A stretch of 61,901 nt of DNA, counting the filler, from Globobulimina sp. (lineage: Eukaryota), in the NCBI GenBank assembly GCA_003354225.1. It is 24 parts of 24 records of this genome, joined end to end, with 100 filler letters (N's around TTAATTAATTAA, not from the genome) between each part and the next. Parts side by side here need not be neighbours in the genome. Positions count along the whole stretch, not along the records: positions 54,257 to 56,738 come from PIVH01006423.1; 23 more parts are not named here. The stretch is one strand, 5' to 3'. The position numbers and the translations under genes are program-made. The notes beneath the pieces were generated by a model. It made no database searches. It worked only from the letters and a program-made list of their open reading frames with translations, and was not told where the DNA came from. Positions 5,071-61,703 of this stretch are shown here, one piece after another. Position 1 is the stretch's first letter; each line of letters begins with the position of its first letter.

Positions 5071-5544
5071 NNNNNNNNNNNNNNNNNNNNNNNNNNNNNN
5101 NNNNNNNNNNNNNNTTAATTAATTAANNNNNNNNNNNNNNNNNNNNNNNNNNNNNNNNNNNNNNNNNNNNGAATCACAGTGTAGATTACGTTGTTCTTTA
5201 CAAACCAAACTGAAATTTCTTAACTAATTACTTTCATATTTAACGAGAAGAACTTTTCGTGAAATTTCGACTTTCTTAAATTTGCATTCAACATTACAAC
5301 TTGTATAGAGATTGATTTTCGTGACTATCCAAGACAAGTTATGAAATTCCTGAACGAAAACATAAATAATTATCCTTGCACACCGTATCTGATATTGCTT
5401 CTTTTCTGCTTATTGGGAAAGTGCAAAATGAGCAGAGAAATCCATGCGAAGATTACAAGAAAAACTGAGAATAATAATGTAGAGATTTATTTTGCAATTA
5501 AAAGTGTTAGATTTGTTTTTAAATTAACACAATGTTTATTGTTT

Positions 5545-23260: not shown

Positions 23261-25744
23261 ACCATATGTAGATCTGTACGAATTCTATGATCGTCATTTA
23301 ATTTCCACAATATTAATCTTTCATAGACTTTAAAAATTATTGGTAGTAATGTTATTGGTCTGTAATTAGTGGGGCTATTAGGACCATCAGATTTTTTTAG
23401 GATTGGTACTACAGCTCCCATTCTTATATAATTAGGAATTATGAATGTTTTGTTCCATAAATTAAATAGATTGTTTATTAATTCGAATGTTTCGTTGTTT
23501 GTTTTTAGGTGTGTTGTGCTTAAACCATCATATCCAGTTGCTCCGTTACTATTTTGGCTGTTAATTGCATCTTCTACAATATAATTATAATTAATATTTT
23601 TATAATGTAATAAAATTGTAAAATTATGACATCTCCAACAGTACATGGTAGTTTTCATAGCTTTCATTGAACATATTCATGTTTTTATTTTTATTTTTGT
23701 GTGTGTATATTTCATTTGCACCGTTGAGGTTTTTGCAAAGTACAGAATTACAATTTAATTTGCAATTATTACAAATATAATTATAATTATCCGAGCTTAT
23801 TATTTTTGTGATTATTTCGTTATAAGTTACATGTTTGCACTTTAAACAATTATTTTCTTTGTCAATTTCATTCTCAATTTTTTCATCATTGTCGTTTTCA
23901 TTTTCAATCATATAATCATTGTATAGATTATTTCTTTTTGAGTTGTTTGTATTGTCGTAAGCTTCTATGTTTTCCCAATCCGTGATTATGTTATTTTTTA
24001 TTGCAGTGTTTTCACTTTCATCTTCTTCTGGTAATGGTTTTATTGCAATGAATTGAAGTGGAGTTAGTATTTTATTGCTTCTTATTTCATTATTGATTTT
24101 ATTTATTAAATTTAAATTTTTGTTTTGGGGATTGTTTTTTTTTCCTGAAATATTTCCAAAGAAGTCACTTAATGCTTCTGATTTATTTGTTGGTTTGTTT
24201 TTGTAAATTAATGTAGGTTCATCTTCAACAAAACTATTTTTCTTATATTGGCTTTTATAAAATTTTAATTTTTTACAATTTTCAAGATTACTAAAATTGA
24301 CTGTGTTTTTCATTTTTTGTCTATCTTTTTTCTTATAATATAATTGCTCTGCTTTTCGAATTAAGTCGTGTGAATTTTGGTTCGTGTTGTAGTTTGTGTT
24401 ATTTAATTTCTTATGCTCAATTCTTATTTTTATTTCATCAAGGTCCATTGGCACCCAGTTATTTAGCCAGTCAGAATTGTACAGTCCATATGCTTTTATT
24501 GTGGCTAGGTGTAGAGTATATATTGTTGAGATTAGTGAAATATTTGTGATGAAATTTAAATCTGAATTACTTAAATTTGAAATTGCAAAAGCTTTGTCTG
24601 TGAAGGTTTGTATGTGTTTGTTTCCATTTTCTATAATATTTTTATGATTTAATAATTCATTTTTGTCCGGTTCTTTTTTCCTGAACACATAGTGTTTTTC
24701 GCATGCTTTTATTTTGCAATTGATTTTTTTTAAGGAGAAGATTACTGGTCTGTGATCATAAAAAATTGGATGTGTGTCGATTGACATTTTGTCAATATTG
24801 TTAATGTCGTTAGTTAGGACTAGATCAATTATCGAACCACCCGTTGTTTCATTTTTTTTCTTTTTAATGCAAGTGTTAATTCCTTTTATGAAGTAATTAT
24901 TAGCTATGGTCATATTATTATTATTTATGTAATTAAGCATGTATTTTTTGTGTTGATTAATGTTTTTGTCACCTGTTATGTTTCCTAATCTTGAGTTAAA
25001 ATCACCAATTGTATAAATTTCTGAGCATGATTTTTTATAAATTTTAGTCCATTTACTAAGTGCATCAAAAAAAGATTCAGATCTTTTTATATTATCTTTT
25101 TTATAACCTCGAGTGTAACTGATTGAAATAAATATTGGTTTATTATTATTATTATTTTCTATTTTAATCCAAACCGTGTCATGTCCTTTAATTTTGTTAA
25201 TACATTCTGTTTTATTTTTATTATTAGATTTTTTGTAAATCATTATACCACCATAATTACCATAGTTATTGGTAGTTTGTGGAGGTTTGTGTGCAATTAA
25301 TTCGTACCCAGGAAGGAACCAATTGGGCTTTTTTATTTGTCGAGTATCAATTAGGGCTATAAAGTCAAGGGATTTTTTTGTCATTAACTGGAAGAACATT
25401 GGGTGTGTATATCTTATTTTTTTAAAGGCTCCACCATTAATATTAAGGAAGCCTATATTGAATTTATTTATTTTAATTTGTGAAGCAATGTTGGGAGAGC
25501 TGTTTGGTGCATATATCTGCAGGAAAGGATAGTTTTGTATTAATTTGTTTATGTTAATGTCAGGGAAATCATTGTCTGGAAGAGAGTTGAACTTAGATCT
25601 GGTTTTTAATAATTTAAGGGTTAGCAATGATTTGGCATCACTTAATATTTTATTTTTGGTTTTATGATTTCTTAGGGCATATTTAAATAATTGTTGTAGA
25701 GCATTATTTTTTATTGTGGAAACATAGAGATCTTTGTTGCTTTC
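23261..25744 (-). mobile_element. Non-LTR retrotransposon (LINE) ORF2: APE endonuclease, Cys-rich insert, RT N-terminus; frameshifted near 23650
   Basis: APE motifs GFLNING, ALIDTR, GGIMIY, IGDFNSR, GSIIDLVL, YDHRPV. RT start ATGYDGL...VVPILKK...NYRPITLLPIIFKVYERLI in a second frame. Confidence 0.88.
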
Positions 25745-26334: not shown

Positions 26335-28328
26335 CTAACTATAATCTTTAATCGCAGCGACCAGACTAGGGTGTAGGGTCCGGTCTGGCTGATTGACTGT
26401 GTGTTGACATTTTTCTATCATAAATTGTTCTTTGGCACAAAGTAAGTCATCCCGGTTGCTTCTCTCAATCACGTGAACTGAATTAAAATCAATAGAATGA
26501 CCACTCGCTAGAACATGTTTGTACAATGGATGATTTTTGTCCTTCTTTCTCTCAACTGCTGTCTTATGTTCGTAGGTTCGATAATTAAGGTGGCGGGTTG
26601 TCTTGCCAACATAAGAGACATTACAATCGGCACAGGGTATAGAGTAAACAACATTTTTAGGGGCCACTTCTGGACTGTTCTTATATAGACAGTGATTGAG
26701 TGATACACCCTTATCAGAATAACATTTAACACCAAATCTTTGAAGATATCGACTGATTTTAGAGCTGAGATTAAGGTAGAATGGAAGTGAAACTGTGGCA
26801 AGTGGCTTTACTTCAGGTTTCCTTTTGGGACAATATACATCCAACTTTTTCTGAACCAAATTAGCTGGATAACCACATTTTTCAAAGCCTCTCTTAAAAT
26901 GTCCCTCTTCATTACAAGCATTATTAAAAGTTGATGAAATTTGAACATTTCTTCGTGATAAGTTTGAAATTGTCCCAATTTTGTGTTGGACAGGTTGAAA
27001 TGATTTGAAATGTGTATATCGGCCAGTGTCAGTAGGCTTGTGGTAAACAGAGAAGACTAAGTCATCAGATGATCGATCGACTAAACAGTCCAGAAAAGAT
27101 AACTTCTTATCATTTTCATTTTCAAAAGTGAATTTTATTCTTCCTTGTGGGTCAAATTGGTTTAGCTCACTCAAAAACAAAGTCAGAACGTTGGTATCTC
27201 GGGCAACAACAAAGCAGTCATCAACATAACGTACAAAAAAGTCAATTTCTACTTTGGAATCAGTTAATGCTTTAGTTTCGAACTCTTCCATGAAAATACA
27301 AGCTAGCAATGGACTCAATGGACTGCCCATAGCTAAACCATATTGTTGACGATAGAACACTCCATTAAATTCGAATTGCGGAGTTTCAGCACAAATTCTA
27401 ACCAATTTCATAATATGAGCAACTGATAAATTGGTTCGATTAAACAGCAAATCAGATCTTGAAGTCAGCCGTTTTTCTAAAATGTCAAGTGCACGTTCCA
27501 AATCAACATTAGTGAATAGAGCAGATACATCAAAAGACATCATAGAGATAGTTGACCAGTCACTTTGCAGTTCTTTTATTTTGTTCATAAAATCATTACG
27601 GTCCTTTAGATGGGTGGGTTGTAAGCCAAGGAATGGTTTCAGAATGTAGGCTAAATAGGAAGCTATTTTATGAGTGACAGTCCCATAAATACTAACAACT
27701 GGGCGCATAGGAATTCCAGCTTTGTGACACTTAGGAAGTCCATAGAAGTAGGGATTACGAACCTTTTGAATGGAAGGTAATAGTTGTCTTTTGCGATTTT
27801 CGGAAATTTCACCATGGCTAATTGCTAAATTTAACTCTTTTTGCAACTTATCATGTAGAACTCTTTGGTTTCCTCCTCGTGCTTTCTTATATGTTCTGAC
27901 GTCACTAAGCACCTCATTGCATTTCTTGACATAATCAACTTGATTCAAAACAACCGTTTTTTGGCCTTTGTCAGCCTTGCAAATCTTTATATCCTTTTCT
28001 TTGACTAATTTTTGCAATCTCTTAGTTGCTTTCCATTGCTCTGTTGTTAAATTAGATTTGACCTTTGTAGCATTTTGTACCATCTTTGCAACAGTTGGAC
28101 AAATTGTATGTCTTTGATTTTCTAAAGGACCACCTTTCACAATTTTATCAACTCCATTGAATGTTTCAGTAATTGTTGGTCTAGTCAAAGTATCAATAGC
28201 AGCCATTAATCCAACTTTAGGTATTTCTTTGGGAACTGGAACAAATTTCGGTCCAAGTGCCAATATATCTAGCTCACTGGAGTTAAACTGTTTAGTTGAC
28301 AAATTGAGAACAAGACTATCACGGAATT
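26335..28328 (-). mobile_element. Penelope-like retroelement ORF: RT + GIY-YIG endonuclease, 5' truncated
   Basis: KADKG, FYGLPKCHK..PMRPVVS, SFDVSALFT, YRQQYGLAMGSPLSP, RYVDDCF, FLDC, VYHKPT. GIY-YIG NVVYSIPCADCNVSYVGKTTR..R..EH with CCHH residues. Confidence 0.95.
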
Positions 28329-38661: not shown

Positions 38662-39051
38662 NNNNNNNNNNNNNNNNNNNNNNNNNNNNNNNNNNNNNNN
38701 NNNNNTTAATTAATTAANNNNNNNNNNNNNNNNNNNNNNNNNNNNNNNNNNNNNNNNNNNNTTTTGTCTTCATTATAGGTCAGTTCACTGCCCAACCACC
38801 GTATACATGAGGGTGTTCGTCAGGTCGGACGGTTGGTTGTGTGTTTTTTTCTCCGCAACTTCCCCTCCGTTTTAAACAAGTTATACTTTGTCATTTTCTA
38901 CGTTTTATACCTCAATCTGTTCCTAATTGCTTATGCCATCCTTGGATCACATTATTTCGATTTAATTCGACCTATATTATCGATTACTTCCTGATTATAT
39001 TTTCATTATTTCTGCTCCGATCGCCAGGCTACACAGAGAACTTGACGCGAA

Positions 39052-41244
39052 ATGTCTACTCTGAATCAGGATGATGAAGTCTACAGTATTCCTTCTCCGC
39101 CGAAAGGAAAATCTTTACTCTTTTCTGCGAACATAAATGGTTTAAGAGGGAAATTCAACGTTGTCTCTGGTACTATTTTAACTTATAAACCTTCCATATT
39201 TGCCCTCCAGGAGACGAAAATTAATTCCGGACACAAAAACTCTGAATTTATTATCGATGGATACGAACTTTTTCGTTGTGACCGCGTCAATTCCCGTTGC
39301 GGAGGAGGTGTTGCCTTGTACATTCGATCAGACCTCAAACCCCGCAAAATAGCCCCACGTCATACTCCAACTGGATTGGAACTTGTAGCTGCTGAAATTC
39401 GTTCTGGGAGCAGGTCACTTATTGTTGCCTCCACATATCGTTCACCAAATGGACAAAACAAATCGGATTTTCTTGATTGTCTGTCAGAGTTTATTGTTAA
39501 TATGGGTGATCAGAGAAATCGACTAGTCATACTTGGAGACACTAACATTGATATTTTTCAACCCGATGATGAGTACATTGACTTTTGCCATAATTACGAA
39601 GTTTCACAAATTGTCAACCAACCAACTCATGTTCTACCCAGAAGTTCTACATCCATTGATCACATCCTTGTACCCAGTAGTTGGCCCTCTCCATCATGGG
39701 GAACAGCTGGTTGTATTGAAAATTATCACCGTATGCTATGGATTCATATACCATTCATAGCACCAAAGGCAATTGTTATTTCCCGTTCTGTATGGTTGTA
39801 TAAAAATGCTGATTGGCCTGCCTATCGCCAACAATTGGATGATCAGAAACTTATAGAGAAAATTTCTAATGCCCCCTCAGTGGATGAAGCAGCAGTACAA
39901 CTGACAAATTCTATCCTTACCATAGCTGCTGCAAATATACCCAAAAGAACAGTCAAACTGGACCCATCTAAATCATGGCTTAAGAAACCATTAAAACAGT
40001 TAATTCGTCGCAAAAATACTGCTCAAGTTGCCGCCGACCGCAACCGCAATAATGTGAAATTAACAAGAATTGCCCGACGTCTAAAGAAACGGGTTGAAAA
40101 AGAGGTAAAAATTGCCAAACTTGCCTACCATAAGGACCTATTTCAAAATTGCGAAACACCTAAGGAATTTTGGAATGCTATCAAACGAACAGTAAAAGGT
40201 CCTACTGCCTCTATACCTCCTCTAACTGTTAATGGTAACAATATTCCCATTGTTGATGATATTGGCAAAGCAAATGCCATTGCCGATTATTATGATACAA
40301 AGTGGAATCGTCAAGATGGACCTTCACCACCTCAAACTAGTCCTCCATCTGAACTTGAGCCAGATTGGATGTGTGAACCTGAGTTTGTCTTTGAAGAAAT
40401 AATGAAAATCCCTGACAACAAAGCCCCTGGTTCCGACAACATTACTGTACGGTTACTGAAAGAAGCAGCAACCATCCTCTCTCCTGTCATAGCTGCCCTT
40501 ATTAATCGATGTATCAGTGATGGTCATTTTCCAACTTCATGGAAACATGCTATTGTCATTCCCATACCAAAGGTGGCTGGATCAACGTTACCAAAGGATT
40601 ATCGGCCAATTAGCTTATTATCAATCATATCAAAGATCATGGAAAAACATTTGCTAAGATTACTTCTACCATACTTGGAACAGTCACTATCAGACAGTCA
40701 ATTTGGGTTTCGTAATGGGCGATCAACTGAAGATGCTTTGATTTATTTCGAAAAATTAATATGTGATGGATTTGAAATGTGTAAAGGTAAAACAACTAGA
40801 GTGTGTGCTATATTTTTTGATGTTTCTGCTGCATTTGATACTGTACCTCTAGGACGTTTACTTACATGTTTAGAAAATAGGTATAGTGTTCCATCATATT
40901 TACTATCTATTTTGAAATCCCTATTGTTTGATCGCTCACAATGTGTTAAAGTTGGTAATAAGTTGTCTAGTACTCGTAAAGTGTTAAGTGGTACACCACA
41001 AGGTGGTGTACTGTCTCCAGTACTCTTTGTCGCCTATGTTAACTCTGTGTTACAGTCTCGCCTCTCATCTGATGCTCACTTAGTCGGATTTGCTGACGAT
41101 TTATGTTATGTCTGTCCTCTGTCCAACTGTGCTTCTGAAGACCGAATCAGGACCGACCTGGGGGTCATTTCTGGTGGTTTTGCTGATTTGGGATTAACCC
41201 TTAATATCGGAAAAACACAGCAAATGATTTTCTCGGTTGCTCCT
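39052..41244 (+). mobile_element. Non-LTR retrotransposon (CR1/L2/Jockey-like) ORF2: APE endonuclease + RT, 3' truncated
   Basis: SANINGL, ALQETK, GGGVALYI, YRSP, LGDTN, SIDHIL. RT KAPGSDNI, WKHAIVIPIPK, YRPISLL, QFGFRNGRST, FFDVSAAFD, GTPQGGVLSP, FADDL. Confidence 0.95.
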
Positions 41245-41344: not shown

Positions 41345-43214
41345 CGAAAATTTAATAATGAAACAAGGCTGCAAAATAACATGCAACGGTGGTAATGGAA
41401 TTCAATTTGGTGACGGAGGTTCGGGTGGTTCAATTTTAGTTATTGCCAACCAAGTAAATATTGATAATTATCAACTGGAGAATCTACTGACTGTAAATGG
41501 AGGATTAGGAGACAGTGATGCTAAAAATGGTATTGCCGGGTCTATTAAATATGGTTATTTAGCATATTTTGATGAAGATGATGAGAATAAACACAATTTT
41601 GTGCCGACAAACAAAAATTTACAGAAATGTAATATAAGATATTTAGAGCATTTTTATGAAGATGATGAGCATTTTTATGAAGATGATTTTTATAATTTTG
41701 TACCATATTGTCAAGAATATATCGATGACATACCATTGATTGGAGTGACTGATATTGTGACGCAGTCAAATTATCTCAAATCTAAAATGTTTGCCGCATT
41801 TATTAATAATAAAGACCCAGAGGATATATTTACAAATGAGGGCATCAAACAAATGATAAAAACAAATTTCCATCATATCATTCAAGATAAAGAATTTATG
41901 AAAGAAATTGATTTATTTTCCGCTCAGACAAGTTTGGGTGGAATGAGTGTATTTGAGTTTATTTTTTTTGAATGCAGATATTATCAAATTGCATATGATA
42001 TCGATATCAATAAATATGATATTTTTGAGATGTTGATTGGCAGTGATTTTTTTGTTAAAGAGAATCAAGTTCAAGTTTGGGTGCAAAGTGTGGATCGGTC
42101 ACAGAAAATATTCACCAAATATCCTCCAACAACCTGTGAAATGCGAATACTATATGAATATGGAGCTAATGATGTGATTACGAAACATTTTAAAACAAAA
42201 GAAGGGATACAAATGTTAACGGACACAAATTTAATTTTGCAATATATTGATCAGAGAAAGTTATATGAATTAAACAAACGATTCTCGCCTCAAAATAAAA
42301 AATGGAAAGGATTGGTTATTCATATTTGGATCGAAATTGGATATGATAACACATTCAAATGCAATTTAAAAGACTTTGTATTTGAAATTGGAACAAAATT
42401 TGATTGGAACATAAATCGGAATGTATCATTTACAGCCGATACACTGTACATTTCATCTCTATGTATAACGAATGCGTCACATATTAATTCAATTCAACAT
42501 CAATTTAGAATTGTTTGTGAAGCAAACTTATTTATATTTGGGAATAGTAGTATTTGTATGGATGAATGCGGTGTAAAAGGTGCAATTTATAATAGAGAAA
42601 AAGGAATATTTATTTATGAACTGGATGCTGACGATCATGGTGGTATTTATGCCTCCGGCTTTAAATTTGGTGGAGGTGCTGGCTATACAGAAAAGGGAGA
42701 AAATGGAGTTAGCAAAATGTACTTTGCTGATGGTTATGGCGGTAATAAATATTTAAGTGCTCAAATTATGCAAAGTAAAAAGTCAAAATTTGAAAGATTT
42801 TCAGTCGGATTTGGTGGTGGTTGTGGCAAAAATAAGCAAGGCAGTACAGGCGGTAATGGTGGTGGGAAAATATTTATTTTATGCAATAATTTAAGAATGG
42901 CAGAAGGCTGTAAAATAACATCAAATGGAGGTGATGGTGCTAAATATGGTGGCGGCGGATCTGGCGGTTCAATTTTAATTGTTACAAACCACACAAATAT
43001 TAATGAAACAAATCGAAATGAAACATTAATTGTAAATGGAGGTAAAGGAGATAAAATAAATGATTATGGTGCCGGAGATGGAAGTGATGGATTTGTTCAA
43101 TTTGGTTACATTGATAGATCAACGAATGATATTACATTTAATGACATCTTCTTAGAAGGAAATTCATATAATTATGATTGTATGCATATGTTTGAGTTTA
43201 CTCAGATTATCTGA
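41345..43214 (+). CDS. Glycine-rich repeat protein (GGGSGGSI-type beta-solenoid modules), 5' truncated
   Basis: Two copies of M..GCKIT.NGG.G...G.GGSGGSIL.....L.VNGG.GD, with GGGAGY and GGNGGGKIFI motifs. A 21-nt duplication encodes EHFYEDD twice. Confidence 0.65.
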
Positions 43215-51674: not shown

Positions 51675-54156
51675 ATGCTACAACTTCACAAGAAGCAGCC
51701 TCGTTTTGGACACCCGGTAAACAATATTTCTTTGAACCTAGGCAATTAATAGGAGGAAGTTTAATACTAGCCACAGCGCTAGTGGTAACGTTTCCAGTCA
51801 GTTGTGGCACGTGCATTCCAGTACGAGTACTGAATGCATTGCCCTACAATATGGTATTGTATGCAAAGTCTACTTTAGGCCATATAACGGAATTCCTACC
51901 TAATTCGGATTCAGAGGTATTTGGGGTAAACCTTGATGGCACCCCAGTCAACCCAGCCAATGATTCCTACGCTTGGCTCGCCGATTTAGATTTGTCAGAT
52001 ACCGATCTGACTAATCTCGAGAAACAAACAGTGGTCGAAACACTGAAAAATTACGCGATATCCTTCAGTCACGCCAAAAATGACTATGGGCACACAACCT
52101 TAGTGGAGCACAAGGTTGATGTTGGGGATAATGGTCCCATTAGGCAACGCCCTTATCGTATACCATTCAAGCAACGGTTTTTGGTGGAGGAGCATGTGGC
52201 AGACATGCTCAAAAAGGGAGTAATTGCGCCGTCAACCTCCCCGTGGGCCTCGCCTATCTTGTTGGTGCCTAAAAAGGATGGGGAAATGCGTTTCTGTGTC
52301 GACTTCAGAAAGGTCAATGCTATCACGAAAAAGAATAGCAGGCCTCTGCCGCGGTGTGACGATTTGATAGATCTAATCGGATCTGGCAAATCAAGAGACA
52401 CCCGTCGTTTTTTTTGTTCGCTCGATTTGACCGCAGGGTACTGGAATGTACCCATGGAAGAAAGTAGTAAAGAAATTACTGCTTTTTGCACGCATCACGG
52501 ACTTTGGCAATTCTTAGTACTGCCATTCGGTCTTACGAATGCACCGGCAACTTTTCAGGAAATGATGGAGAATATACTCGTAGGCGTCGATAGAGCACTA
52601 ATATATCTAGATGATGTCCTAATCGTTGGGGACACATTCGAAGAAACGCTAGATTTATTAGTTATCGTTTTCAAATGGATCGCTGATGCCGGGTTAAAGT
52701 TCAAACTAAAGAAATGCAGTCTGTTCAAGCGTGAGACTGAGTTTCTTGGTTTTGTTGTCGGTCGTGATGGGATAAAACCGTCTCCCAAGAAAATAACCGC
52801 CGTCAAAAGTAGACTGCCACCTGAGAACCTAACTGATTTACGCCGTTTTCTCGGTTTTTGTTCTTATTACCGTCGTTTAGTGGCTGAATTTTCTACTGTC
52901 GCCGCTCCTTTGTATGCACTAACTAAAAAGGAGACTAAATTTGAATGGAGTGAAAACTGTCAAAATGCGTTTGATGAGCTTAAGCGTAGACTAACAACTG
53001 CACCCGTTTTAGCTTATCCCGATTTTCGTTATCCATTTATAATCGAAACTGATGCTTCTCTTGTTGGTCTAGGCGCCGTCCTATCACAAGAAATCGATAA
53101 AGTCCGCCGACCCATCGCGTACGCTTCTCGTTTGCTTACACCAATAGAGCGTAAAACGTTCAGTGCTGTTGTTGCAGAAGCCACTGCAGTACTCTTTGCT
53201 GTGCATAAAGCGTTTCGTTGTTATGTATGGGGTTATCCGATTACGGTAGAAACCGACTCGTCTTGCCTAAAATGGCTTTTGTCTGCCACTCATGCAAATT
53301 CTAAGTTAGCTAAATTCGCGTTGCAATTGCAGGGTTATGACCTTACAATTAAACACCGATCTGGTAAATCCAATTTAGCTGCTGATGATTTGTCTCGTGT
53401 TGAGGTACAACCCGACGAAACTGACAAAACTGACCGAGTTGATGTTTTAAGTAAACTGGAACCAGAAACATCTGACCCAACTATTACTGTGGACAATGCA
53501 ATTAATTTGCCTAGACTACAGCGTGAAGATGTTTCGTTGGTGCCCATGATCGATTACTTAACGTCACGTACACTACCTACCGATGAAAAAGCAGCCAAAG
53601 ATTTAATCTATTCAGGACAGTTCTATACTATAGATGATAATATTCTCTATCGTATTGAGCCTAAGAGCCGCAATTTAACGCTTTTAGTTGTTCCCGAACC
53701 GCTGAAACAAGAAATAATTTTGGCCAGCCATGATAGTATCTTCTCGGGACACATGGCACTGCGTCGAACTTATCTTCGAGCCAAAGCACGTTACTTTTGG
53801 TTTGGAATGTTCAGTGATATAAAACGACACTGTCTTTCCTGTTTCAAGTGTGCTTCGCGTAAAGCACCCGCTAAAAAAATCATGGCTCCGCTTGGTCGAT
53901 TGCCCCCGGTTTCATACCCCTTCGATCGTGTGGCCTGCGATATTTTAGGACCATTGCCGTTGACCTACAATGGGAATAAATATATCGTAGTGTTCACAGA
54001 TTATTTGACAAAATGGGTCGAAGTTTTCTCAACTTCAGACATGACAGCTTCAACGCTGGCGCGTTTGTTTGTTGAGGGGATCGTTTGTCGATTTAGCAGC
54101 CCTCGAGTTCTGCTTACCGATCGTGGTACACAGTTTACTTCTGATCTCATGCGGGA
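51675..54156 (+). mobile_element. Ty3/Gypsy LTR retrotransposon pol: RT, RNase H, integrase; both ends truncated
   Basis: SPWASPILLVPKKDGEMRFCVDFRKVN, LDLTAGYW, LPFGLTNAPATFQ, IYLDDVLI. RNase H ETDASLVGLGAVLSQ. Integrase H..GH...CFKC, VACDILGP, LTDRGTQF. Confidence 0.96.
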
Positions 54157-54780
54157 NNNNNNNNNNNNNNNNNNNNNNNNNNNNNNNNNNNNNNNNNNNN
54201 TTAATTAATTAANNNNNNNNNNNNNNNNNNNNNNNNNNNNNNNNNNNNNNNNNNNNGAGAGTGAACGCGAGGAGTTTCTGCAGGTTTTGGGTGCGGCGGA
54301 GGACTGGATATGGGACGTTGAGAAGGAGAGTGCCGGCGTGTATAAGGCGAAAATCCGCGAGTTGAAGAAGGTGGGCAAGCCATTGTTTTTGCGAGCGGAT
54401 GAGCTGAGTGCTCGGCCTGCGGCCATTGGTGCGGGCGGGAGGACGTTAAACCAATTTGAGTCTGCAAATGGCCATTTACATTGTGGCCAATTACGACGTC
54501 GTGGGGAGGACAAAGGTGTCTCTGTATATGCAGATGGTGGCGGAGATGAGGAAGAGACATATGAAGCAACACAAAGAAGGACGGCGACGTTGGATGAATC
54601 TGAGAATCAAGGTATACATTATTTGCATATTCTATACCTATTAAAACAAACTTTGATGAATGTGTCATTTTTGTGTTTTTGTGTGTTGTGTTGTGATAAG
54701 ATGGATATTGTGGTAGTTATGAAATTATTGCGGTGGTATTATTGTTTGTGGTGTATGGCATTACCATTAATATTCCAACA

Positions 54781-56493
54781 ATGGGCTGTTTTAAAACTAC
54801 TTTATTGCTAATCATTGGATTATGTTTTAAACTCTCTGTCACTTTAAATATTACAGCTGGAGCTCATCATACATGTGCATTGTCGACCAGTGATGCCCTC
54901 AAATGTTGGGGAGAGAATTTTTTTGGTCAGTTAGGATATGGAGATACGGATTGGAGAGGAGATGGAGCAAATGAAATGGGAGATGCCTTATTAGAGATTG
55001 ATTTGGGAGTTAATTTCACTGCGACACAGATTGTAGCTGGAGGTGATCATACATGTGCATTGTCGACAAGTGATGCCCTCAAATGTTGGGGGATGAATAA
55101 TTATGGTCAGTTAGGATATGGAGATGTAAATGATAGAGGAGATGGAGCAAATGAAATGGGAGATTATTTATTTGAGATTGATTTGGGAGTTGGATTCACT
55201 GCGACACAGATTGTAGCTGGACGCTACCATACATGTGCATTGTCGACCAATAATGCACTCAAATGTTGGGGGAGGAATAATTATGGTCAGTTAGGATATG
55301 GTGGTGTAAATAGCAGAGGAGATGGAGCAAACGAAATGGGGGATGCCTTATTAGAGATTGATTTGGGATCTGGCTTTACTGCGACACAGATTGTAGCTGG
55401 ATGGTACCATATATGTGCATTGTCGACCAATAATGCAGTCAAATGCTGGGGATATAATTCTTTTGGTCAGTTAGGATATGGAGATACGGCTCGGAGAGGA
55501 GATGGAGCAAATGAAATGGGAGATGCCTTATTAGATATTGATTTGGGAGTTGGTTTCACTGCGACACAGATTGTAGCTGGAGGTGAGCATACATGTGCAT
55601 TGTCGACCAATAATGCAGTCAAATGTTGGGGATATAATTTGTTTGGTCAGTTAGGATATGGAGATACAAATAACAGAGGAGATGGAGCAAACGAAATGGG
55701 AGATGCCTTATTAGAGATTGATTTGGGAATTAATTTCACTGCGACACAGATTGTAGCTGGATATGCCCACACATGTGCATTGTCGACCAGTGATGCCCTC
55801 AAATGTTGGGGATATAATGGTTATGGTCAGTTAGGATATGGAGATACGGATTGGAGAGGAGATGGAGCAAACGAAATGGGAGACGCCTTATTAGAGATTG
55901 ATTTGGGATCTGGCTTTACTGCGACACAGATTGTAACTGGACATTATCATAATTGTGCATTGTCGACCAGTGACGCCCTCAAATGTTGGGGGTATAATAA
56001 TTATGGTCAGTTAGGATATGGAGATGTAAATAACAGAGGAGATGCAGCAAATGAAATGGGAGATTATTTATTAGAGATTGATATTGGGTCTGCTTTTACC
56101 ATATCCCCAACAGCAGCACCAACACAGGCAACACTTTCACCAACATTTCCACTCTCTGCACCTACCATATCCCCAAGCAACGCGCCATCGACAGCTCCAA
56201 CAGCAGCACCAAGCAGCGCGCCATCAACAGCTCCAACCATATCCCATACCAACTCACCATCAAAATCACCTTCTGATAATTATTTTGATTATGCATTTTA
56301 TGGATTTGGATGTATTGTTGCTGTTTTGCTCATAGTTGCAATTTTTTTCTTATTTAAAAAAAAATTGGGAAGTAGAAAAAAGATGAATTCAGTAACCAAG
56401 AAAAGATCAACACCACAAATTGAATTGCAATTCGGTGAGGTAGAGGACCAATCTAGTGATGGTATATCAAATCATTCGGATGAAATGGTATAA
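54781..56493 (+). CDS. Type I membrane receptor: signal peptide, seven RCC1/BLIP-II-like repeats, Pro/Thr/Ser stalk, TM, short cytoplasmic tail
   Basis: Signal MGCFKTTLLLIIGLCFKLSVT. Seven 60-aa units AG..HTCAL....KCWG.N..GQLGYGD...RGDGANEMGD. SPTAAPT stalk. TM FYGFGCIVAVLLIVAIFFLF followed by KKK. Confidence 0.92.
   Translation: MGCFKTTLLLIIGLCFKLSVTLNITAGAHHTCALSTSDALKCWGENFFGQLGYGDTDWRGDGANEMGDALLEIDLGVNFTATQIVAGGDHTCALSTSDALKCWGMNNYGQLGYGDVNDRGDGANEMGDYLFEIDLGVGFTATQIVAGRYHTCALSTNNALKCWGRNNYGQLGYGGVNSRGDGANEMGDALLEIDLGSGFTATQIVAGWYHICALSTNNAVKCWGYNSFGQLGYGDTARRGDGANEMGDALLDIDLGVGFTATQIVAGGEHTCALSTNNAVKCWGYNLFGQLGYGDTNNRGDGANEMGDALLEIDLGINFTATQIVAGYAHTCALSTSDALKCWGYNGYGQLGYGDTDWRGDGANEMGDALLEIDLGSGFTATQIVTGHYHNCALSTSDALKCWGYNNYGQLGYGDVNNRGDAANEMGDYLLEIDIGSAFTISPTAAPTQATLSPTFPLSAPTISPSNAPSTAPTAAPSSAPSTAPTISHTNSPSKSPSDNYFDYAFYGFGCIVAVLLIVAIFFLFKKKLGSRKKMNSVTKKRSTPQIELQFGEVEDQSSDGISNHSDEMV
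54850..56100 (+). repeat. Coding tandem array, 7 x 180 nt
   Basis: Exact 180-nt period. Blocks such as GCGACACAGATTGTA, GGTCAGTTAGGATATGG and AGAGGAGATG are shared by the units. Confidence 0.97.
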
Positions 56494-56838
56494 GTTCACT
56501 TTTTTTTGTATAAATAGTATGTATATACTTTTTTTTTATTAATGTGTTTGTCACCTTTTGCTCATTTGAGTGTGTGTGACAATACGTTATTAATATTATA
56601 ACATAGTACTTGTAGTACCTTTTTTTTTACATTTTAATAATAAGTAATACTGTATATGTAAATATTTCTCATGATCAATGATTTGGTTATTAATTAATTT
56701 GATTGTATGTGTTGTTTTGCATGTTTTTTTTTCTGTGANNNNNNNNNNNNNNNNNNNNNNNNNNNNNNNNNNNNNNNNNNNNTTAATTAATTAANNNNNN
56801 NNNNNNNNNNNNNNNNNNNNNNNNNNNNNNNNNNNNNN

Positions 56839-57844
56839 GCACAATTTGACAGGAAGATTGATCCGCGACGCCGTGGAAGATTATGGCTGTTCCATCGCGG
56901 ACAGATCGTTGAAGCGCGGAGGCAAAGACTGCTTTTTTTATCACGGCATAGATGGACATCGGATAATATTCAATACCACCATGATTCGGTTTTGTTCGCC
57001 AATCTCAACCTCGCGCTCCGCGAATATGATCCAAATGTACATCGATATGTCCTCCTCGACCGTGGGAATGGTGCTGCAATGCAAGGAGTATAGCAAATAT
57101 TTGCGGTTTTTCCAATCGAGCTGGTTGTCGATGCATAGCATGGAAGCAGAGCATATCTTTTGTGGCGGGGATTGGCCGTTGCGTATCAATTCGATATTGG
57201 ACGTTGGCTCCGTGTCGTCCTATAACTATAGATATTATTTGCGTGCAATCAATATAATCCAAGACTTGATTCGCGGCGAATATAACCATGAATGCGAGTA
57301 CATTGATAACAAAATCAAGTATGCGTTCAATCAGATATTTTCGTCGCGGCTTTGGATGCGAGATGCGATCCCAAAATATGTGGACAAATTGTTTGATAAA
57401 TATTGCGATAATTTGGGCGCTTCGATTGAGATCAATTTCGAATATATGAACGTGGATTGCAGCGGTTATCTGCAGATTAAATCGTCGATTATCGATCCGG
57501 ACCAATGTGACAGAATAAAATTCGATGTGTTGTGTTGCGTATTTAGTAATGTTACGATATTTAAATTTATCACATATAAATTATGTAAACAGACATTTAA
57601 TTATTTATTGGAGTTTTTAGGGGAGAAGAAACACGAAAAATTGTATGATTCGAAATTGAAATATGTTATATTTTCATCACCGAATGAAACCAAGTTGACC
57701 TGTAAAAATATTGTGAAATTATATCAAAAGAAATATAAACAAATTAATTGGTATATTGAGTATAAAAAAAAAGATCAATTTGGTCAGCCTGTCCTATTGA
57801 TTTGCGATCATAAAATTAAAATGGATGATTGTGTCATAATGTAA
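56839..57844 (+). CDS. ADP-ribosyltransferase-like (ARTC/toxin-type fold) protein, 5' truncated
   Basis: FFYHGI (R/H strand), FCSPISTSRS (STS motif) and SWLSMHSMEAEHIF (ExE) in canonical order and spacing. Confidence 0.65.
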
Positions 57845-57996: not shown

Positions 57997-58749
57997 ATGG
58001 GTAACAAAATATATTATTACTGTCCGTCATGCGGTGATGAAGTATGGGCGTACAGTGGTTTCGAAGGAAATACATGCTGGGGATGCAAAGGCTCCAAACC
58101 GACCACAGACAAAGGTTCCTGGTATGACTTAATGGGGAGAAGAGCGGCAGAACTTCCCTCCAATTTAAGCCAATTTTATGACAGTTCAGGTGGCAAAGTA
58201 ACGTTAACATATAATTCTGGTAAAGCCAATGTTGTATTTACCAATGTTTTGCCAAAGAAAAGATGGCTAAAAGTGGCTGGATATACCGAATTCAATAAGA
58301 CGTATACATGTGGTTTAAATGCGATTAATATGGGATTAAAAATATGGGATTATAATAAACAATGGAAATTAAGTGATTATTCATATAAATATTTTGCAAA
58401 TGCAAAATGGGGAATGTCTGGCTCAAAATTTTATGATTGTAATGTAAAAAAAGCATTTAAACATTGTGGGTATACATATCATGAAACATTTGCAGGGATT
58501 GGAGCGTTTCCATTTAAATGGAATTATATCGACGATAATGATTATAGTCAATATTGCGTGATTGGAATGGGTGGATATGGATTGGGGGCGCATTATTTCT
58601 TAATTATTGGTGTTGACACCGAGAAGCAACATTATTTGATTACTGATCAAACAGAGAATGTTTGGGTTGCGGGCACTAAATTGATGAGAACGGCACTTAT
58701 TTATCAGAATAACGGTTATTCGCAACATTCACTTTATAAAATAGGATAA
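57997..58749 (+). CDS. Zn-ribbon + papain-fold C39-like cysteine peptidase
   Basis: N-terminal MGNK and CPSC...CWGC. Catalytic-like YTCGLNAINM, GAHYFLIIGVD and YLITD (Cys-His-Asp). Intronless. Confidence 0.6.
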   Translation: MGNKIYYYCPSCGDEVWAYSGFEGNTCWGCKGSKPTTDKGSWYDLMGRRAAELPSNLSQFYDSSGGKVTLTYNSGKANVVFTNVLPKKRWLKVAGYTEFNKTYTCGLNAINMGLKIWDYNKQWKLSDYSYKYFANAKWGMSGSKFYDCNVKKAFKHCGYTYHETFAGIGAFPFKWNYIDDNDYSQYCVIGMGGYGLGAHYFLIIGVDTEKQHYLITDQTENVWVAGTKLMRTALIYQNNGYSQHSLYKIG

Positions 58750-59420
58750 TTTATACACGCATTATCGCATGTTTTTTTTTTAATTTTTTGATTTTCTAAC
58801 GTGTAGTTTCTGTGTTTTGTTATGTTTGTGAGTTATTTGGCTGATAAAAGCCAGTATACTCCATATAATTTAAGTTAAGGCATCACAGATTCAGATTTAT
58901 TAGCAACTGTAACAATATTTGCCATTTGTCGCTCGTATATGCAGAATAATGAGAAATAGTGATTTATCGTATATTCAGCAATGATGACGTACTGCATTTA
59001 AATGAATAAATATTTTTTTAACGAGAAACGGTCCGAATGTCCGATGATTGAAATCTGACTCACATACAAAATGCTCGGAATTGGTGTCTGGCAGATGATA
59101 AAAGAATTCCTGAGGATATATTTCTTCAAAACTTTGAACGAAATGAAAGAACGCTCATAATATATTCAAGTAAACAACGCAAAACCAACGTACATAAAAT
59201 AAACGAGAAAAACAAAGAAAACAAAAAAATAAATTAGTATTAACGGATATATAAAAAATTTATAAGCAGAAAAAAAGTCGTAAGTATTTATTGCGGCGGC
59301 GGTCCAGGCGGTGGAGGTACNNNNNNNNNNNNNNNNNNNNNNNNNNNNNNNNNNNNNNNNNNNNTTAATTAATTAANNNNNNNNNNNNNNNNNNNNNNNN
59401 NNNNNNNNNNNNNNNNNNNN

Positions 59421-60004: not shown

Positions 60005-61703
60005 TTATGAACAAAGAAATATTTCAACTTCTTTTACTTTGAATGTTTGTTTACCACTGTTTAAATAATGTGATTGTAGCATATCATATGCAGATGTGCT
60101 TGTAGATGAGCCTGAGTATGCATTACAATTTGAATATATTATAATATCATATCCGGTTCCAAACCAACTCATAAAATTTGAAGCATGGTATACTGCTTTC
60201 TGTGTCTGTGTTTGTTTTAAATTAAAAATTTGTGGTTGATAATTATTGCTGGATCTAATAAGAAATAGGAAAGCATTGCCATCCGATTTAGATCCATTAT
60301 TATTACTTGTCCATGGCACTGATGAATAACCACCAAAAACATTGTTTGCATCCGTATGAATTATATGTACTGTCCTTCCTTTCTTATCACATTTTGTATG
60401 GAAATCCTGTGCATTCCATCCATCTCTACTCGCTCTATAAAGCAATTTAAATGTTTCACCAACCTTTTTATTGGATTCATTCATCAATTTCACAAATATA
60501 TTCTTTTCGTTTTTGCTCAGAATCAACGAATCAATAACTTGCAATTGTTTTTCTTTGTTTTTTGTGTTTTGTTTGTTTGTATTATAACATATACACTGTA
60601 CAATATATTACATTTATAATTAACTTGTTGTAAATGATATAATTTCTGAATACAGTGACCATCCAAATTCATTTTTACATTTTGATCGGAGTTTATATTT
60701 TTTATTATCACACAAATTTGTACATAAATATTCGGATTTATTTGTAAATGTTGCTAATTGTTTCCAGTTTGATTTCTTTTCATCTTCTTGGTCTGCATCG
60801 CCATCACCATTTATTTCCAAATTATAACATAAATTTGCTTTTGTTTCAGCAAACTCAATCTTTATTTATGTGAATTATAAATTAAAAAAACAAACAAAAT
60901 AAATACTAAACAGTGGCTGAATTGGAACGAGTTTGAATATCTTTTACATAAAATATTGGTGGATTTGGATAATTATAACTTTTTATATTACCAATAGTTT
61001 GAATAAAATCATCCATTTTGTTTCTATCAAATTCCACACTGACCATTGCCTCAAATTGTGGTTTATTCAAAATGTCCATAATATCATCATTTATATTTTT
61101 ATTAATTTCTAAAATTTTCATCTTTCTTTTTGTTTTATGCAAAGTGTCATCATTCAACAATTTGTTATGATTTGTTTGAGCTTTAAGCAATAATAATTAT
61201 TAAGATACACTTTAATATTATTCAGATGCAATGATATCTTTTCTTGTTTTTTATTCATTTCTTTTTTTGAATTTTCAGCTAATTTATCCATTCGAATGTT
61301 GATTTTTTCACAATTTCTTTTCGAAACTCATTTATTTGGTTTTCATTTTGTGTGGAGATATTATGTAAAATATTTAGATCTTTCTCCAATTTATTCAAAT
61401 ATTGCGTGGCTTCCTTCAGTTTGTTATGGATGCCATCCATCACAGTGTCTTCTTCCTGGCCCAATACAACAACAACACGTCAACTAATATTAATATTCAT
61501 TCCTTGTTGTAATTTTTTGACTGCTTTACTGAATCTACTCGCTAAGATACCATCCAATTTAAATTATATTCCTTTATTTCCTCCATCGACACATCCAACT
61601 CAATAAGCTGTGGTTTTGCTTTTAATAACTTATTTGCTGACAGCCATTCAATTAATGGGTCTTCACCATCAGCATCACCTTCCTTTGTCTCCATTTGAGA
61701 CAT
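60005..61703 (-). pseudogene. SAM-like + coiled-coil + FN3 + TLDc gene, disrupted in its 5' half
   Basis: TLDc LLYRASRDGWNAQDFHTKCD...NVFGGY...FKVKEVEIF. FN3 YKLRSKCKNEFGWSLYS. The N-terminus (ATG 61703, DPLIEWLSANKL) has apparent frameshifts near 61560, 61305 and 61190, and an in-frame TGA near 61481. Confidence 0.7.

Follow-up and report, generated by a model that had tools for sequence, protein, structure and literature searches.

A recently amplified, recombining RCC1-like propeller on a putative surface glycoprotein in a Globobulimina assembly

We analysed a stretch of 61,901 nucleotides (hereafter the window) composed of 24 parts of the Globobulimina sp. assembly GCA_003354225.1, and in particular the gene at 54781-56493 (+), in the part taken from PIVH01006423.1. 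This gene encodes what is probably a surface binding protein. In the reading that we favour, with moderate confidence, it carries a recently amplified and recombining RCC1-like propeller on a foraminifer-type, type I surface glycoprotein, with a germ-line diversity that would need no dedicated machine. The blades would have been recently amplified from one another within this gene, and they would still swap short patches of DNA by unequal recombination or gene conversion, leaving a scaffold that is uniform down to the choice of codons. A mucin-like stalk and a single transmembrane helix would carry the propeller above the membrane, and a short tail without any domain would follow. Its variable face would most likely be the binding surface for an extracellular ligand, at a guess a protein or glycan that the cell surface or the pseudopodia encounter on prey, bacteria or the substrate. 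The diversity would be produced in the germ line by ordinary mutation, repeat recombination and selection. A dedicated diversification machine appears unnecessary because no such element was seen and because the same pattern occurs in unrelated hosts.

The open reading frame (ORF) is intact. It runs from an ATG at 54781 to a TAA at 56491-56493, encodes 570 residues, and can be divided as follows:

54781..54843 (+): start codon and N-terminal hydrophobic signal peptide or anchor, residues 1-21 (hydropathy; layout of relatives)
54844..54855 (+): N-terminal closing strand, residues 22-25 (predicted strand 22-26, homologous to unit positions 57-60)
54856..56115 (+): seven 180-nt RCC1 units, residues 26-445 (Tandem Repeats Finder, Pfam, unit table, structure model, Foldseek)
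56116..56295 (+): Pro/Ser/Thr/Ala-rich stalk, residues 446-505 (S13, P12, A10 and T9 among 60 residues)
56296..56364 (+): predicted single transmembrane helix, residues 506-528 (modelled helix; mean Kyte-Doolittle hydropathy over 19 residues, KD19, of 2.77 at 507-525, then KKK)
56365..56493 (+): putative cytoplasmic tail of 42 residues and the TAA stop (translation)

Pfam assigned the array to RCC1_2 in seven stretches (E 2.4e-71; 234 bits for a cut-off of 22), to WD40_RLD (E 4.4e-63; 214 bits for a cut-off of 150) and to RCC1 (84 bits for a cut-off of 21.7). In an AlphaFold2 (AF2) model based on a 30-sequence alignment, 408 residues have a predicted local distance difference test score (pLDDT) above 90, and one strand pattern occurs seven times between residues 21 and 440. 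The modelled fold is a closed seven-bladed propeller of the RCC1 type. Its ring is predicted to be complete at 28 strands because the opening strand (residues 22-26) is a homologue of the strand that ends each unit: LNITAG corresponds to TQIVAG and supplies the 28th strand. The N-terminus is hydrophobic (KD19 of 1.98 over residues 8-26) and is modelled as a helix at residues 5-15 with low pLDDT; the label of signal peptide comes from this hydropathy and from relatives with the same layout. The stalk, whose coding region includes an array of period 36 at 56164-56263 (Tandem Repeats Finder), has a pLDDT below 50 within a disordered stretch (442-511), and it is probably O-glycosylated. Three N-x-S/T sequons are present in the ectodomain, and two of them, at unit position 53, lie on the other face from the variable loops. 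The hydropathy, the composition of the stalk and the three sequons fit a surface glycoprotein. Pfam recognised no domain, hence no signalling domain, in the cytoplasmic tail. With residues 441-570 as a query, five of 1142 candidates matched at E<=0.001, all of them covering about 45% of the query (the low-complexity stalk). Four of these five matches carry PF04886 (PT repeat), and none is a specific relative of the tail.

Tandem Repeats Finder returned one array for the propeller (54855-56088; period 180, 6.8 copies, 86% matches, 1% indels, score 1635). The units start at 54856, 55036, 55216, 55396, 55576, 55756 and 55936, and the stalk takes up the last five codons of unit 7. Nucleotide identity is 82-91% within units 1-6 and 73-81% to unit 7, while the mean identity between blades (0.79) is the highest found among 118 proteins (median 0.54). 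The hypervariable codons of each unit are numbers 3, 4, 20, 22, 23 and 31-33, and also 44. A first-pass annotation of this DNA had described a seven-blade propeller of the RCC1 type, lying between a signal peptide and a mucin-like stalk with a transmembrane segment. The propeller is borne out by the seven Pfam stretches, AF2 and Foldseek, and its setting by the hydropathy, the composition and the AF2 helix at 506-528. That annotation had also read the variable residues correctly: the di-residues AH, GD, RY, WY, GE, YA and HY in units 1 to 7, at the positions that it gave, the patch after CWG (ENFF, MNNY, RNNY, YNSF, YNLF, YNGY, YNNY), the patch after YG(D/G) (TDW, VND, VNS, TAR, TNN, TDW, VNN), and the framework variants SDAL (units 1, 2, 6 and 7), NNA (3, 4 and 5), DY (2 and 7) and GSG (3 and 6). 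It had further described the di-residue as unique to each unit. All seven pairs do differ, but seven different pairs in seven blades are expected by chance, since the di-residue positions have an entropy of about 3.8 bits throughout the family.

We then counted silent and replacement differences between blades by the method of Nei and Gojobori over 55 codons (44 framework and 11 variable). The 44 framework codons show a proportion of silent differences (pS) of 0.177 and a proportion of replacement differences (pN) of 0.041. For the 11 variable codons, pS is 0.407 and pN is 0.543, with a pN of 0.572 at the six core codons. The ratio of replacement to silent rates (dN/dS) for the whole set of 55 codons is 0.60. 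Some codons are fixed in all seven units according to their position: glycine is GGT at position 24 but GGA at positions 2, 27 and 35, and leucine is TTG at position 9 but TTA at positions 26 and 45. Codon bias was therefore rejected as the cause of the uniform scaffold, as the codon for a given residue depends on its position in the unit but is shared by all seven units. The earlier claim of units nearly identical even at synonymous sites holds for the homogenisation itself, as seen in these position-specific shared codons, but not for its degree, the framework distance being 0.177 and not 0.

Framework pS ranges from 0.177 to 0.82 across 66 arrays, i.e. the window array and the 65 out of 78 prokaryote loci with at least six clean units. 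The window array has the lowest value, and its ratio of core pN to framework pS (3.2) is the highest of the 66. For instance, a Bdellovibrio gene (L002) combines a blade identity of 0.74 with a pS of 0.61, its silent sites being saturated. Among the metagenome loci with at least five clean blades (44 out of 79), nine have a lower framework pS than the window array (down to 0.047) and six a higher ratio of core pN to framework pS (up to 10.7). Five metagenome arrays (L139, L085, L142, L155 and L089) are more uniform than the window array, with a framework pS of 0.047-0.093 and a core loop pN of 0.34-0.51. The metagenome locus L079, the closest relative of eukaryote type with DNA available, is not homogenised (blade identity of 0.60, framework pS of 0.54), which suggests that the event in the window is recent and specific to this gene and not a trait of the subfamily. 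Homogenisation in this class of propellers is a recurrent, gene-specific event.

The blades are also mosaic. Among the 171 pairs formed by 19 biallelic informative sites (over 165 nt), 92 failed the four-gamete test. In a test similar to the pairwise homoplasy index (PHI), the incompatibility of neighbouring sites was 0.425 vs. 0.538 after shuffling (P = 0.0062, 5000 permutations). Patches with identical codons are found in non-adjacent units, such as ACG GAT TGG in units 1 and 6 and TCT GGC TTT in units 3 and 6. These results support an exchange of short tracts between blades. The proposal that the framework was homogenised by unit shuffling or gene conversion is thus upheld by the codon sharing, the four-gamete test and the PHI-like test.

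The relatives of the protein place it in a very large, mostly bacterial class of secreted "consensus-like" RCC1 propellers, with two conserved cysteines per blade. From 8000 candidates scored in a protein search, 4314 had E<=0.001. Among the 120 matches listed, three came from EukProt and the other named ones were bacterial (Bdellovibrio, Sorangium, Actinobacteria, Chloroflexi), with 36-58% identity. The best eukaryotic relatives among these matches are three Nonionella stella transcripts (P0059, P0106 and P0111; 56-60% identity). Both P0059 and P0111 encode a hydrophobic segment before blade 1, a propeller, a Pro/Ser/Thr-rich stalk and a transmembrane segment, to which P0111 adds a cytoplasmic SAM domain; P0106 is a propeller fragment of 438 residues without a transmembrane segment. 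The contig of L079, with a guanine-plus-cytosine (GC) content of 0.39, encodes seven blades with the framework seen here, after a hydrophobic segment and ahead of a long Pro/Ser/Thr-rich stalk and further domains, in an ORF that runs off the contig. None of these four sequences shares the tail of the window protein. A scan of prokaryote genomes with a Bdellovibrio query gave 453 confirmed relatives among 482 candidate stretches. The record titles of the prokaryote relatives (L001-L078) include many Bdellovibrio, Bacteriovoracaceae, Myxococcota and Bradymonadia (predatory or gliding), as well as Bdellovibrionota, Acidimicrobiia and Roseiflexaceae. These predatory or gliding hosts may bear on what the propellers bind, in a set that is biased by the Bdellovibrio query.

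From the 120 relatives listed, we cut 1168 clean blades of 60 residues. Their entropy peaks at unit positions 3 (3.79 bits), 20 (3.76), 4 (3.75), 22 (3.72), 23 (3.61), 32 (3.41) and 33 (3.39). The variability profile of the window array follows the entropy of the family (Spearman 0.69 over 55 positions; 0.71 with 21 Nonionella blades). The hypervariable di-residue is therefore a property of the whole class, bacteria included.

The model has strands at unit positions 56-1, 5-10 and 15-19, and an outer one at about 46-49. Such an antiparallel meander would put loops 2-4 and 20-44 on one face, and 11-14 and 51-55 on the opposite face. All the strongly variable positions (3, 4, 20, 22, 23, 31-33 and 44) fall on the first face, whereas the positions with two or three states (12-13 and 52-53) fall on the second. 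In the HMMER alignment to the plant photoreceptor UVR8, positions 3 and 4 correspond to W285 and R286, and positions 22 and 23 to D96 and F97 and to E43 and D44. As far as the available part of the source goes, the salt bridges between the monomers of the UVR8 dimer are R286-D96/D107 and R338-D44/E43 (PMC5091643). From strand topology and this equivalence, the variable codons, six to nine in the loops of each blade, are predicted to lie on one face, the dimer-contact face of UVR8. At the six core positions, 21 residues out of 42 are aromatic (Tyr, Phe, Trp or His). Two earlier proposals, variable residues on the loops of a single face and contact residues rich in aromatics, are supported by these data.

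We compared the variable codons with a neutral simulation in which a consensus blade evolved on a star tree with equal base rates, stop codons alone being rejected (2000 runs per distance). The five most variable codons have 1.89 nucleotide differences per codon pair, against simulated maxima of 1.47 at d = 0.20 and 1.64 at d = 0.26, the two pairwise distances measured at silent sites. Four codons show at least five different residues, an outcome with a simulated probability of 0.0015 at d = 0.20 and 0.05 at d = 0.26. The first-pass annotation had suggested dN/dS as a check on these sites. Their pN (0.543) does exceed the framework pS (0.177), while their own pS (0.407) is raised as well.

Parts of the contig were found in six public sequencing runs, four of them from one sample; the best run contains 0.55 of the sampled words. 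None of the six is listed as an RNA run, though X6 is, at a guess, one. Between 102 and 221 contigs per run lie on the 2.5 kb, and 27-84 per run fit two places. The depth of these contigs was not read as a copy number, as depths are contig means and the blades share words. In run X1, record 3 (55143-55254, no difference) joins the DYLF patch of unit 2 to the RY of unit 3, and record 5 covers 55593-55696 without any difference. Differences between the runs and the window cluster at the di-residue codons, and some of them equal other blades of the same gene, possibly placed on the wrong unit. At the unit-6 place, a Tyr-Asp version that matches none of the seven blades was found in X1 (three contigs), X3 (two) and X5 (two), three runs in which unmatched versions alone occur at this place. 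Other unmatched versions are Gly-Gly at the unit-5 place (X1, X3 and X5), Gly-Tyr (X3 and X6) and Thr-Asp (X5). At two di-residue places, the codons of the window itself are absent from X1. The unmatched versions hint at further copies, alleles or individuals. Within the stalk repeat (56091-56212), contigs of X1, X5 and X6 skip or replace 54-116 nt, which suggests that the mucin-like stalk has length variants among copies or organisms. Such joints in the runs, including these stalk variants and an 89-nt GT..AG skip described below, are hints only: either their sides are shorter than 30 letters or the runs are those of other organisms.

Several points weigh against our reading, and they concern the variable codons, the predicted face and the assembly. 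At d = 0.40, the simulated maximum (1.90) reaches the observed 1.89. The set of variable codons was picked post hoc, which inflates its dN/dS, and the dN/dS over 55 codons is just 0.60. Silent differences are also elevated inside the variable codons (pS of 0.407 vs. 0.177), so that old patches within a homogenised frame fit the data as well as positive selection. The loop codons might thus be under diversifying selection or be older than a scaffold renewed by conversion, and their raised pS leans slightly towards the latter. The match of position 33 to D107 of UVR8 hinges on the placement of a seven-residue gap, and the argument for a single face is drawn from strand topology and the equivalence to UVR8. 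The contigs of the public runs that lie over the array are about 85-150 nt long and none spans a whole unit, so that the order of the blades is that of the assembly. At the di-residue of unit 6, every covering contig in X1, X3 and X5 differs from the window codon. Finally, the gene fragment upstream on the same contig, of the Hsp70 superfamily, is truncated and apparently frameshifted, and the contig may be rearranged or mis-joined.

A rival reading is an assembly chimera: the order of the blades, or some of the blades, would have been built from short reads that belong to several arrays, paralogous or allelic, and the gene would not exist in exactly the form written here. We regard this as unlikely. 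The assembly does consist of contigs of about 2.5 kb, and the near-identical framework stretches between the variable patches are about the size of a read. Moreover, none of the Logan contigs of the runs (about 85-150 nt) spans a unit, even the best run contains no more than 0.55 of the sampled words, window codons are missing from X1 at two di-residue places, and the upstream Hsp-like gene is truncated. However, the ORF is intact, with exactly 28 strands and with the closing strand and the transition to the stalk correctly placed, and error-free public contigs bridge the variable patches of adjacent blades. Even with a wrong order, the blade types and the pattern of variation would be real.

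A further possibility, which we find rather improbable, is that the gene belongs to a diversifying repertoire. It would be one of many surface RCC1-propeller genes or alleles that exchange blades between loci, in a recognition system (self/non-self, prey or symbiont) similar to that of the fungal HNWD genes, with binding faces that would be peculiar to an individual or would change quickly. The hallmarks of HNWD that can be seen in a single gene are present here: the repeats have a high nucleotide identity, the blades are mosaic, and the hypervariable codons lie on the predicted interaction face. Some di-residue codons in the public runs, with their 102-221 contigs per run on 2.5 kb, correspond to no blade of the window gene. 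Three or more paralogues are present in Nonionella stella, including one with a cytoplasmic SAM domain. On the other hand, the other 23 contigs of the window contain no further copy, and the exact DNA pattern of the framework had no match in the metagenome collection. The tail is common to no relative and has no signalling domain, many of the variants in the runs may be blades of the same gene that were aligned to the wrong unit, or alleles or other individuals, and the eukaryote-type relative L079 has ordinary diverged blades (pS of 0.54). The stronger version, a foraminiferal germ-line repertoire of surface RCC1-propeller receptors with blades swapped between genes or alleles and with lineage-specific, aromatic-rich binding faces, is accordingly a speculation to which we give little weight. 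If it were true, it would be a cell-surface, RCC1-based counterpart of HNWD, acting in self/non-self recognition at the fusion of pseudopodia or in the recognition of prey or symbionts, and the unmatched blade variants of the public runs would be the first trace of the repertoire.

The absence of any recent homogenisation, with old blades kept uniform by purifying selection and codon bias, is scarcely credible: the Bdellovibrio relatives have blades that are 0.66-0.74 identical in protein despite saturated silent sites (pS of 0.61-0.76), so that a high blade identity alone needs no recent copying, and a low pS in loci of high GC content may come from codon bias, but here the GC content is 0.41 with a pS of 0.177, and codon bias cannot yield position-specific codons fixed across seven units.

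We return to a recently amplified and recombining propeller, and to its surroundings. The 24 pieces of the window are each about 2.48 kb long, apparently ordered by length, and separated by 23 identical spacers (N44, a 12-base linker and N44) at 2486-2585, 5071-5170 and so on to 59321-59420. As the pieces are separate, genes on either side of a spacer are unlinked, and the genuine context of the propeller gene is limited to 54257-56738 (2.5 kb). Two further features were found on this contig:

54257..54611 (+): Hsp70-superfamily (Hsp110/Grp170-like) gene fragment, with 49 of 67 residues (73%) identical to P0128/P0129
54612..54700 (+): candidate GT..AG intron of 89 nt, 5' of the start codon, bridged in X3 and in X5 by a single contig that has 23-26 letters on either side

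The proteins P0128 and P0129 (Bolivina argentea and Nonionella stella) are the sole matches of the upstream ORF at E<=0.001, aligned at their residues 739-805. The Hsp-like fragment is conserved up to about 54460, with an apparent change of frame near 54465, after which the similarity resumes in another frame of a three-frame read. It is without the final 100 or so codons of its foraminiferal relatives, and Pfam gave no match for this piece of 118 residues. In the public runs X5 and X6, very deep contigs diverge from the window sequence at 54447, and their in-frame loose ends resemble the intact foraminiferal Hsp protein. The copy in the window may be a pseudogene fragment or a mis-join. Removing 54612-54700 would join the upstream ORF in frame with the propeller ORF; the weak evidence for this skip fits a 5' intron or a length variant. 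The contig appears to come from a foraminifer or a close relative, because the Hsp-like ORF matches Bolivina and Nonionella and because the best eukaryotic relatives of the propeller are Nonionella stella transcripts. A bacterial contaminant or a fresh transfer was rejected, given the foraminifer-like Hsp fragment on the same contig and the stalk and transmembrane segment in a eukaryotic style, as in P0059 and P0111.

The other, unlinked contigs carry several retroelements. A Ty3/gypsy-type pol ORF at 51677-54154 (+) has RVT_1, RNase H, integrase zinc-binding and integrase core domains, and its GC content (0.43) is above that of most pieces. Three more retroelement ORFs, on separate contigs, lie at 39046-41244 (+), 23627-25744 (-) and 26338-28326 (-). 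Their types are a LINE-type endonuclease with a reverse transcriptase, a match to an endonuclease-reverse transcriptase model, and a reverse transcriptase with a C-terminus that looks like GIY-YIG (Penelope-like), as judged by eye from the sequence and with no tool match. A TLDc domain (E 1.7e-23) is encoded at 60008-60607 (-). The ORFs at 57997-58746 (+), 41346-43211 (+) and 56840-57841 (+), of 250, 622 and 334 residues respectively, have no Pfam family at E<=0.001; that of 622 residues has Gly-rich repeats at either end.

The first-pass annotation had compared the gene with lamprey variable lymphocyte receptors (VLRs) and with the repeat code of transcription activator-like effectors (TALEs), and had suggested an undescribed immunity-like system. 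We found no support for this, as the gene is complete, without cassettes or a signalling domain, and its pattern is class-wide and already described. An assembly of the VLR type was rejected because the gene is complete and intact, with no flanking donor cassettes in reach. A tblastn search for donor cassettes or further copies over the whole window (24 contigs) found only the gene itself, the flanks being 524 nt upstream and 245 nt downstream. The orphan donor cassettes for which a search had been suggested were thus found neither in the 2.5-kb contig nor in the other 23, distant cassettes being beyond reach. A code of the TALE type does not fit either: positions 20, 22, 23 and 31-33 vary equally, in a closed ring and not a superhelix. 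A target of a diversity-generating retroelement was likewise rejected, with no second copy of the variable region and no reverse transcriptase on the 2.48-kb contig; the reverse transcriptase genes of the window are on other, unlinked contigs and belong to retrotransposons.

The nearest solved structure is that of UVR8 (sequence E 2e-39; best Foldseek match E 7e-35 with a TM-score of 0.91, the range being 0.87-0.91, normalised to the target; about 24% identity), followed in Foldseek by domains of HERC2, RPGR and RCC1. In Arabidopsis UVR8 (PDB 4dnw, 6dd7), the dimer-contact and chromophore residues are at unit positions 3, 4, 22 and 23, which are hypervariable here. However, UVR8 works as a UV-B photoreceptor in the cytosol and nucleus, its 52-residue blades are diverged, and it has no signal peptide, stalk, transmembrane segment or conserved cysteine pair. 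RCC1 proper, the Ran exchange factor and a nuclear protein that binds both Ran and chromatin, was rejected as a model because the signal peptide, stalk and transmembrane segment would put the propeller outside the cell; RCC1 itself is a weak match (E 4e-7). Foldseek also matched the ectodomains of the plant receptor kinases CRINKLY4 and ACR4 (7a0k, E 9e-16; 7a0j, E 4e-15), extracellular seven-bladed RCC1-like propellers of single-pass membrane proteins. They differ from the window protein by their low identity (16-18%), their diverged blades and their cytoplasmic kinase, and no mucin-like stalk is evident from the titles of the entries. The Nonionella proteins (P0059, P0106 and P0111) and L079 share the framework motif with the window protein, to which they are 56-60% identical, but their blades are less uniform. 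BLIP-II of Streptomyces is described as a secreted, RCC1-like seven-blade propeller that inhibits beta-lactamase, a pure binder, in the part of PMC9218822 available. Its likeness to the propeller of the window is by description alone, as it is absent from the 30 sequence matches and from the Foldseek matches listed.

The surface recognition proteins of foraminifera are little known, and our literature search returned nothing on surface RCC1 proteins in this group. The present gene is a compact candidate for what foraminiferal cells bind and, if more copies exist, it would allow a test of whether recognition repertoires in protists arise from shuffled repeats. Being one gene on a contig of 2.5 kb, it is one more example and not a new principle. 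Its closest functional analogue is the HNWD family of the fungus Podospora anserina, where propeller repeats undergo concerted evolution, with reshuffling of the units and diversification at a few codons of each repeat, on the interaction face. A further study of these WD40 repeats was reportedly carried out by Chevanne et al. in 2010. In the available part of an earlier account, concerted evolution links the WD40 repeats of ten HNWD genes (het-d, het-e and others), both inside a gene and from one gene to another, and diversifying selection acts on four codons of each repeat, at the interaction surface (Paoletti, Saupe and Clavé 2007, PMC1805685). Here also, the codons of the predicted interaction face differ more than the silent sites, for codons chosen post hoc, a simple simulation and a face predicted from strand topology and UVR8. 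HNWD proteins differ by their WD40 fold and their cytoplasmic STAND/NLR nature, and in the sources at hand exchange among ten loci and allorecognition are established for HNWD alone.

The window gene also has the uniform blades and the few silent differences of a highly repetitive propeller. According to the available part of the study of Pereira and Lupas (2022, PMC9218822), highly repetitive propellers occur in 32 of 65 families and are read as fresh amplifications from single blades; RCC1/BLIP-II propellers represent 10% of them and are "mostly bacterial, a few eukaryotic and viral". The likeness extends to the RCC1-type blade, the near-identical blades, the few silent and more numerous non-synonymous differences, and an amplification followed by differentiation. 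In contrast, no foraminiferal type I membrane protein is described in that part of the account, and the window array is mosaic, which suggests a continuing exchange rather than a single amplification event. A pattern of variable loops on a frozen scaffold is thus already described there (PMC9218822), and what the present gene adds, relative to that part, is a eukaryotic case predicted to be anchored in a membrane. The route by which a blade is amplified, the scaffold kept and one face varied, described for bacterial propellers and for fungal WD40 receptors, would then extend to a eukaryotic membrane protein.

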